From sequence record PQ249395: a stretch of DNA of 64,000 bases; one strand, given 5' to 3'. The stretch is from Escherichia phage Pu-Krd-SF1. Positions 7,150 through 7,358 of the stretch are shown here, one piece after another. Every line of letters begins with the position of its first letter. Position 1 is the stretch's first letter. Under the pieces are notes generated by a model. The model was not told where the DNA came from. It did no database searches and saw only the letters and a program-made list of their open reading frames with translations. The position numbers and the translations under genes are program-made.

Positions 7150-7326
7150 ATGGCAAAACAAGCTAAAGCAAAGAAAGCAGTTGAAAAGAAAGTTGGTGAT
7201 TCTAAACGCGCTGGCTACAAGCGTGGGTCGAACTCTCGTATCAATCAAACTGTTGAGAAGATCATGCGCCGAGCACGTGCGGTTCTTCGAGATGATGCTT
7301 CTCGTTTTGGTAAGCAGAAAGCATAA
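7150..7326 (+). CDS. Small highly basic protein (58 aa from ATG 7150)
   Basis: MAKQAKAKKAVEKKVGDSKRAGYKRG...; track ORF starts at upstream ATG 7108, but 7150 has the AAGAGA spacing; followed by a strong terminator. Confidence 0.55.
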   Translation: MAKQAKAKKAVEKKVGDSKRAGYKRGSNSRINQTVEKIMRRARAVLRDDASRFGKQKA

Positions 7327-7330
7327 GTTG

Positions 7331-7358
7331 AGGACTCCTTCGGGAGTCCTTTTTTATT
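7331..7358 (+). terminator. Rho-independent terminator after the small basic ORF
   Basis: AGGACTCC-TTCG-GGAGTCCT followed by TTTTTTATTTT. Confidence 0.7.

Follow-up and report, generated by a model that had tools for sequence, protein, structure and literature searches.

The open reading frame (ORF) at positions 7150–7326 (+ strand) of the 64,000-nucleotide (nt) stretch of Escherichia phage Pu-Krd-SF1 DNA analyzed here (PQ249395; this whole stretch is referred to as the window) is gene 30.9 of T4-like phages. Comparison of related loci indicates that it is a genuine protein-coding gene, which starts at ATG 7150 rather than at ATG 7108 and is preceded by a mosaic of independently exchangeable structured RNA modules, named E, B, A, H1, and H2. 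The gene is already known, being annotated in T4 records as 'gp30.9 conserved hypothetical protein' (T4 RefSeq coding sequence 130364–130540, 58 amino acids [aa], NP_049823.1), and finding it again adds nothing new because this annotation has long existed. The value lies in its context, that is, a strongly basic, laboratory-dispensable gene held at one position in nearly every T4-like phage examined, and several covariation-supported leader RNAs absent from Rfam in one of the best-studied phage groups, which relatives exchange as modules and which have even reached the tRNA cluster of phages from an unrelated group.

Gene 30.9 and its product

The translation of the ORF is exactly the 58-aa peptide quoted in an earlier note on this DNA, which had left the start codon to be decided between 7108 and 7150 and had named a non-conserved frame in homologues as an argument against the gene. 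A word-indexed search of 5.8 billion proteins retrieved 68 homologues, and a scan of viral contigs yielded 40 related loci ranging from 100% to ~51% identity. The frame is open in 40/40 of these viral loci despite up to ~49% amino-acid divergence, and all of the products start with M(A/S/K)K, mostly as MAKQ. Among 30 distinct coding sequences, variable columns fall most often at third codon positions (52 vs 36 and 32), and the median pairwise ratio of nonsynonymous to synonymous substitution rates (dN/dS) is 0.28. The extension from ATG 7108 is not conserved in sequence and is absent from most of the 40 loci, and this ATG sits in the loop of leader hairpin H2. Because the frame and the start are both conserved, dN/dS is 0.28, the 7108 extension is not conserved, and ATG 7108 lies within a hairpin loop, the gene is judged to be real and to start at 7150. 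Among the 70 ORFs of 50 aa or more that begin with ATG on the + strand of the window, the most basic product is the 72-aa form starting at ATG 7108, and the longer N-terminal forms (72 or 97 aa) found in older entries and some records are likewise not conserved. A weak Shine-Dalgarno-like GAGA is located at 7139–7142 (+), 7–10 nt before ATG 7150, and GGAAG or AAGGA occupies the equivalent place before the conserved start in other loci.

Two observations concern individual records of the gene. In a metagenome contig (QZLZ01027750, 595–771; L085), a deletion brings codon ~23 of 30.9 right up against H1, so that H2, the ribosome-binding site, the translation start, and the basic N-terminal segment (first ~22 codons) are lost; the contig may represent a natural loss of function, or it may be misassembled. 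In several phage records (H8, H33, H129–H131; P0018), a 30.9 homologue is called '1,4-alpha-glucan (glycogen) branching enzyme, GH-13-type', which, for proteins of 58–68 aa, is obviously a propagated mis-annotation.

The window protein is 100% identical over its full length to T4 gp30.9 (NP_049823 / UniProt P17310, titled 'Uncharacterized 11.1 kDa protein in Gp30-rIII intergenic region') and belongs to phrog_1427 (E = 2.3e-31 over residues 1–58), a family in the function-unknown category of PHROGs. The description of the product as about 30% basic holds, since it contains 11 Lys and 8 Arg (19/58, 32.8%), giving a net charge of +14, an isoelectric point of 11.4, and a mass of 6.5 kDa. A filter-only hidden Markov model search of 1.84 billion representatives returned 18 clusters. 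They include small phage proteins of the gp30.9 family, a few ORFs that are spuriously extended or truncated, and one false positive of low complexity (P0075). The T4-like phages with named members infect Escherichia, Klebsiella, Serratia, Yersinia, Edwardsiella, Pectobacterium, Cronobacter, Erwinia, Pseudomonas, and Aeromonas. Across the family, there is no variation at R20, Y23, K24, R25, and R30 and almost none at G22, N28, and R43; the core motif is (S)KR(A)GYKRx(S/T)NxR(I/V), behind a Lys-rich N-terminal segment, and two distant members bear extra Lys/Ala/Pro-rich tails. The AlphaFold2 model consists of helices 2–14 and 19–53 (mean predicted local distance difference test score 68, rising to 87 at residues 31–50), and residues ~29–50 form an amphipathic helix with a hydrophobic moment of 0.62, a value matched by 44/5000 shuffled sequences.

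The window derives from a T4-like phage (Tequatrovirus); over the 1.2 kb around 30.9, identity is 100% with Escherichia phage Pu-Krd-SF5 and 99% with many Tequatrovirus genomes. The genes are arranged in the order cd, 31.2, 31.1, 31 (GroES-like co-chaperonin, 6020–6355), rIII (6503–6751, stop codon 6749–6751), a 398-nt gap, 30.9, 30.8 (7437–7769, Pfam Phage_30_8) and, further on, the DNA ligase gene for gp30. The order 31.1–31–rIII–30.9–30.8 is common to the window and the related loci, placing the ORF at the position of the T4 gp30.9 family, and the location of 30.9 between rIII and 30.8 is constant in every enterobacterial T4-like locus fetched. Even in a 2.9-kb metagenome contig with a distant 30.9 homologue, gp31 (Cpn10) and rIII still lie upstream. 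Gene 30.9 is thus a vertically held T4-type gene and not a recent acquisition. The guanine-cytosine content is 0.44–0.46 at 6800–7024 and 0.47 in 30.9 itself, compared with 0.30–0.37 in the flanks.

Structured RNA modules between rIII and 30.9

The gap between rIII and 30.9 spans 89–416 nt over all loci and 398 nt (6752–7149) in the window, which is unusual for such compact genomes. In an alignment of 33 leaders, conserved blocks are present, absent, or reordered even among close relatives, and it is from this comparison that the leader is described as a mosaic. Thermodynamic z-scores are unremarkable (−1.9 for the leader, −0.6 for Block B), so the case for structure rests on covariation, which in Block B, Block A, and module E bears out the structured RNA that the earlier note had placed upstream of the gene.

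Block B (6883–7027, +) is an optional 145-nt element predicted to fold into seven helices with a closing stem UAUAG/CUAUA. Compensatory changes occur at 22/44 predicted pairs, 97.6% of the alignment cells are paired compared with 28–43% when the partners are slid, the covariation score was reached by 0/500 shuffles, and the G-U wobbles are consistent with the + strand only. ORFs have been annotated over Block B on either strand in some GenBank records, but these are unlikely to be genes because its indels are not multiples of three and its variation tracks the base pairs. Block B has no Rfam match (E<=10), is not tRNA-like, and is absent from T4. A Block B 20-mer was found in none of 185,579 bacterial and archaeal species genomes, and no E. 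coli match was obtained either. By contrast, 405 phage records carry Block B, one copy each (carriers include Pu-Krd-SF5, Lutter, and SHFML-11), corresponding to roughly 39% of the ~1049 records that match a 609-nt query of leader plus 30.9. In the viral and metagenome scans, every true match was upstream of 30.9, always between rIII and 30.9. Its immediate 3' neighbour is Block A or H1 depending on the phage, which leaves no conserved riboswitch-type expression platform. On covariation, Block B is a candidate new, uncatalogued structured RNA, and it is probably the GC-rich island of the earlier note.

The remaining modules are smaller. Module E (6790–6868, +) is a long irregular hairpin shortly 3' of the rIII stop; it also occurs in T4 and is conserved in Tequatrovirus and JS98-like loci (L029–L038), and RNAalifold on 13 sequences gave 25 pairs, five with compensatory changes. 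Block A (7030–7078, +) comprises a hairpin at ~7035–7062 with a UU...GGUUAU loop and a conserved tail, UAAAUAUCCAAAAAC / UAAAUAUCCAAAAC. Its stem is 82% paired compared with 26–53% when slid, with double changes in 25 cells against at most 8, and an nhmmer profile detected a single copy in 40/45 loci and likewise in the window, in each case between rIII and 30.9. Because its distance to the 30.9 start varies (58–335 nt) and it directly abuts the rIII stop in several phages, Block A may belong to the 3' end of rIII rather than to 30.9. Hairpin H1 (7085–7095, +), CCCCUUGAGGG, is followed by a conserved CUUGCG, and its stem appears as CCC/GGG, CUC/GAG, or GCC/GGC when read directly from the 33-leader alignment. 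Hairpin H2 (7101–7124, +) has the stem GCAGG...CCUGC. Klebsiella and Citrobacter phages have, in place of H2 just upstream of the 30.9 start, the 60-nt elaborated Block D. In the window, Block D is found instead between gene 31 and rIII (6412–6475) as a 60-nt nested hairpin with the layout GGUAGUC-UACAAC-...GUCGAAAGAAG...-GAACGUG-GACUACC, and compensatory changes distinguish its outer and its inner stem from those of the element in the Klebsiella and Citrobacter phages.

Searches with Rfam 15 covariance models gave 0 matches at E<=10 in the leader (6752–7150), nor did Block D match Rfam; over 6300–7500, the only matches were below gathering score and lay on the terminator and the 3' end of the 30.9 coding sequence. 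ARAGORN predicted no tRNA or transfer-messenger RNA in the window or in 34 loci. The leader has no match in E. coli genomes, so nothing in its sequence points to mimicry of host RNA. These modules probably act as RNA and on their own, through processing, stability, or release as separate small RNAs, and not as an obligatory operator for gp30.9.

Transcription and separable histories of leader, gene, and terminator

A sigma-70 promoter scan found no + strand match within 6752–7149, and inspection by eye revealed neither a late-promoter TATAAATA nor a MotA-box promoter between rIII and the 30.9 start; a conserved GGGCTTGCG was considered as the MotA box of a middle promoter in the leader, and was discarded as no usable -10 follows it by eye. 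Since no promoter was matched between rIII and the start of the gene, 30.9 appears to be the last cistron of a unit that runs through gene 31 and rIII. Between gene 31 and rIII, at 6356–6363, TATAAATA matches the T4 late-promoter box perfectly; transcripts from it should cross rIII and the leader into 30.9, and the gene may therefore be expressed late as well as early. It is thus probably read from upstream early/middle promoters together with this late promoter. In a T4 time-course, the 30.9 RNA was classed as 'early' and the protein was unclassed in the proteomics (PMC9697503 supplement). CRISPRi-ART knock-down of T4 30.9 was scored 'Not Fit' (log2 fold change 0.04, p 0.26; PMC11879866 supplement), and the absence of a fitness cost indicates that 30.9 is dispensable on the laboratory host. 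The in vivo expression of rIII and 30.9 is, judging from its citation in PMC9409239, the topic of Driukas and Nivinskas (2003).

An intrinsic terminator is predicted at 7330–7361 (+), beginning 4 nt past the 30.9 stop. It consists of a stem-loop, GAGGACTCC-TTCG-GGAGTCCTT (7330–7351), followed by the T-run TTTTTTATTTT, with a 9-bp stem (five G-C pairs), a UUCG loop, and a folding energy of approximately −13 to −15 kcal/mol. The earlier note had called it the strongest terminator of the window; it is strong, but three hairpin-plus-T-run candidates have lower folding energies, at 31442–31473 (−; −16.8), 14976–14995 (−; −15.2), and 36838–36870 (+; −15.2). A T4-type early promoter for gene 30.8 follows at 7381–7409 (+; TTTACA-N17-TAGTAT, with TG). 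Intergenic stem-loops accompanied by early promoters have been described in T4-type phages as PeSL (promoter-early stem-loop) cassettes (Arbiol et al., 2010, PMC2839356; Comeau et al., 2014, PMC4122927), with the promoter consensus TTTACW-N17-TAYWAT (PMC4122927). The stem-loop at 7330–7351, with its early promoter within ~100 bp, forms such a cassette, of which the terminator supplies the stem-loop half and the promoter of 30.8 the other half. A hairpin plus T-run occurs 4–12 nt past the 30.9 stop in 30/31 distinct loci, and in most of these 31 loci a TTTACW-N-TAnnnT promoter lies 45–60 nt later. Transcription would end at the stem-loop of the cassette and be restarted for 30.8 by its promoter. 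Because the terminator–promoter cassette also serves 30.8, the terminator is better regarded as shared regulatory furniture than as a private part of a 30.9 module.

The structured leader, the basic protein, and the terminator that the earlier note tentatively combined into a compact acquired module are each real, but the evidence is against a single unit acquired jointly. Block B is optional, being absent from T4 and from ~60% of the records carrying the locus; the leader exists without 30.9 in phi92-like phages, distant 30.9 genes lack a long leader, and the terminator is shared with 30.8. In three distant homologues (L066, L067, and L069), the gene is monocistronic, with a sigma-70-like promoter, a strong Shine-Dalgarno site, a terminator, and no long leader. 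One of the three adjoins gp31 and rIII homologues. L069 (2434–2689 of a 71-kb metagenome contig) immediately follows a DNA ligase gene and has a promoter of its own, and rIII is not its neighbour.

The reverse arrangement is seen in phi92-like phages, which belong to a different subfamily (Stephanstirmvirinae, Justusliebigvirus; 17 records) and carry the T4-type leader at 95–99% identity within their tRNA cluster. This copy, comprising E, A, H1, H2, the Shine-Dalgarno site, and the ATG, is inserted between tRNA-Gly and tRNA-Gln without the 30.9 coding sequence, as in L088 1501–1838 (phage arall MN850584), L090 1263–1600 (phi92 NC_023693), and L089 (A150). Here the ATG of 30.9 continues in frame into the final 27 codons of rIII (phi92 gp113), and a 13-nt direct repeat, TTTATTGGAGATT, which runs into tRNA-Gln, borders the insert on both sides. 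From the fusion of the ATG to rIII and the flanking repeat, the copy is a circularly permuted T4 segment, as would arise from the integration of a small circle. Mini-circle shuffling has reportedly been proposed for PeSL cassettes, and the permuted leader copy fits that process. In the A150 sub-lineage, the mini-ORF is frameshifted and the leader is retained, and a different 45-nt module occupies the exact Block B site. Since the two modules share it, the site CTTGAATGT|...|ATGATGACG has at least three alleles, namely empty, the 45-nt module, and Block B.

Possible roles of gp30.9 and comparison with known systems

The reading preferred here, in which about as much confidence as doubt is placed, is that gp30.9 plays a non-essential, accessory part and binds a nucleic acid or ribonucleoprotein (RNP) that is conserved across Gammaproteobacteria, the favoured target being host RNA or the ribosome. 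Binding would occur through the Lys-rich N-terminus and the invariant RxGYKRx(S/T)NxR segment, and the amphipathic helix at ~29–50 would serve for self-association (pairing) or for docking on the partner. Consistent with this reading are the basic motif, invariant in phages of nine genera, the charge of +14, the helical model, and the Lys/Ala/Pro-rich tails. RNA or the ribosome is slightly favoured over DNA for two reasons: 30.9 persistently neighbours rIII and appears to share its transcript, RIII being reported to bind ribosomal protein S1 (PMC9409239), and the motif is kept across phages of many host genera.

Several results weigh against this proposal. Binding to nucleic acid or the ribosome, suggested in the earlier note from composition, is still inferred from composition, and the synteny with rIII may simply reflect the general collinearity of T4-like genomes. 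No family was found for gp30.9 in Pfam or NCBIfam (E<=1) or in PADLOC, a sequence profile search of the PDB yielded no chain below E = 0.1 (the best match, a helix of SlmA, was insignificant at E = 0.14), and Foldseek of the AlphaFold2 model against the PDB and BFVD returned nothing. Neither a ribosomal-protein profile nor a chain of a solved ribosome matched the protein. In hhalign comparisons, gp30.9 received a probability of <0.2% against S20 and S21 and of 0.45% (E = 0.13) against lambda N. The AlphaFold2 model is essentially two helices of moderate confidence and for that reason cannot separate RNA, DNA, and protein partners. The T4 proteome leaves gp30.9 unclassed, although a K/R-rich protein of 6.5 kDa gives very short tryptic peptides. 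A literature search found no paper giving 30.9 a function.

Among the alternatives, a DNA-binding host-takeover protein, in which a bZIP-like (basic leucine zipper) basic region and the amphipathic helix dimerise on host or phage DNA, for example the nucleoid, is doubtful. The basic N-terminal half, the single long helix predicted after it with its hydrophobic stripe, the histone-H1-like character of the Lys/Ala/Pro tails in the two distant members, and early expression would suit it; however, no similarity to a DNA-binding family was detected beyond the non-significant SlmA helix, the amphipathic stretch covers only about three heptads, and the knock-down has no phenotype. It is improbable that gp30.9 acts instead as a protein-targeting inhibitor or anti-defence peptide whose RxGYKR segment docks on an acidic host protein, with no nucleic-acid role. 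Many small, early, dispensable T4 proteins do act by docking on host proteins, 30.9 is dispensable on the laboratory host, and it is conserved across phages of many Gammaproteobacteria. Nevertheless, neither PADLOC nor any other library gave a match, though such libraries do not hold anti-defence proteins systematically, and the near-universal single syntenic position in enterobacterial T4-like loci is unlike that of patchy anti-defence genes. That the ORF is not translated at all, its conserved sequence being RNA that continues the leader or terminator structure, is barely credible. The missing proteomic detection in the T4 dataset (PMC9697503) and the weak Shine-Dalgarno site in the window would agree with it, but the frame remains open across all the diverged viral loci, third positions vary most, dN/dS is low, and distant homologues have strong Shine-Dalgarno sites and their own promoters and terminators.

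Two further proposals, both with a small chance of being correct, connect the protein to its leader. In one of them, gp30.9 binds Block A, H1/H2, or Block B of its own leader and represses translation, or forms a particle with processed leader RNA. A structured leader of 89–416 nt precedes this single small basic gene in all enterobacterial T4-like loci, where Block A is near-universal and Block B is found only upstream of 30.9, in keeping with such a link. However, the three distant members keep the basic motif behind short, unstructured leaders, the protein is identical in T4 despite the missing Block B, Block A stands at no fixed distance from the start, module order varies between phages, and protein subtype and module content are uncorrelated. 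Family-wide, the leader does not co-occur with the protein, as L066, L067, and L069 on the one side and the phi92-like phages, which keep a T4-type leader without the 30.9 coding sequence, on the other demonstrate, and this separability weakens the autoregulatory or RNP link. The other proposal, held with similarly low confidence, is that the leader is a cluster of functional phage noncoding RNAs in which Block B represents a new RNA class (ribo-regulator, ribozyme, or decoy), with gp30.9 as its dedicated partner or target. If it is true, a small RNP or ribo-regulatory system has been missed because T4 itself lacks the largest of these RNAs. If, more generally, the leader RNA or gp30.9 acts on host translation or RNA decay, a new piece of the T4-type host takeover would be added.

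Compared with known systems, the closest counterpart is 30.9 of T4, which has the same 58-aa sequence, the same neighbours (31 and rIII upstream; 30.8 and 30.7 downstream), and the same terminator and downstream early promoter. The protein shows no difference, and only the leader does, with a 145-nt Block B in the window and none in T4. Similar to PST/T4-type PeSL cassettes, the 30.9–30.8 gap contains, between two small genes, an AGGA...TCCT stem-loop followed ~30 nt on by the early promoter; however, PeSL accounts only for the 3' boundary, and the leader upstream of 30.9 consists of other structured RNAs and lacks an early promoter. The arrangement also recalls autogenous regulators (ribosomal-protein operons and T4 gp32, gp43, and RegA), in that a small basic protein is encoded after a long covariation-supported structured 5' region, but gp30.9 lacks similarity to ribosomal families including S20 and S21, and its leader belongs to no Rfam leader family and is missing in the three distant members. 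Like lambda N, gp30.9 is small, basic, and predicted to be helical, is an early phage product, and has conserved hairpins upstream in the transcript; the hhalign probability is very low, however, and in 30.9 the terminator comes after the gene and not before it. T4 rnaC and rnaD (species 1 and 2 RNAs) are structured RNAs of 119–139 nt from the T4 tRNA region. Block B resembles them as another phage-encoded structured RNA, and the phi92-like leader copy likewise resides in a tRNA cluster. Block B shares no sequence similarity with rnaC or rnaD, so it was not retained as their relative, and it is located between rIII and 30.9.

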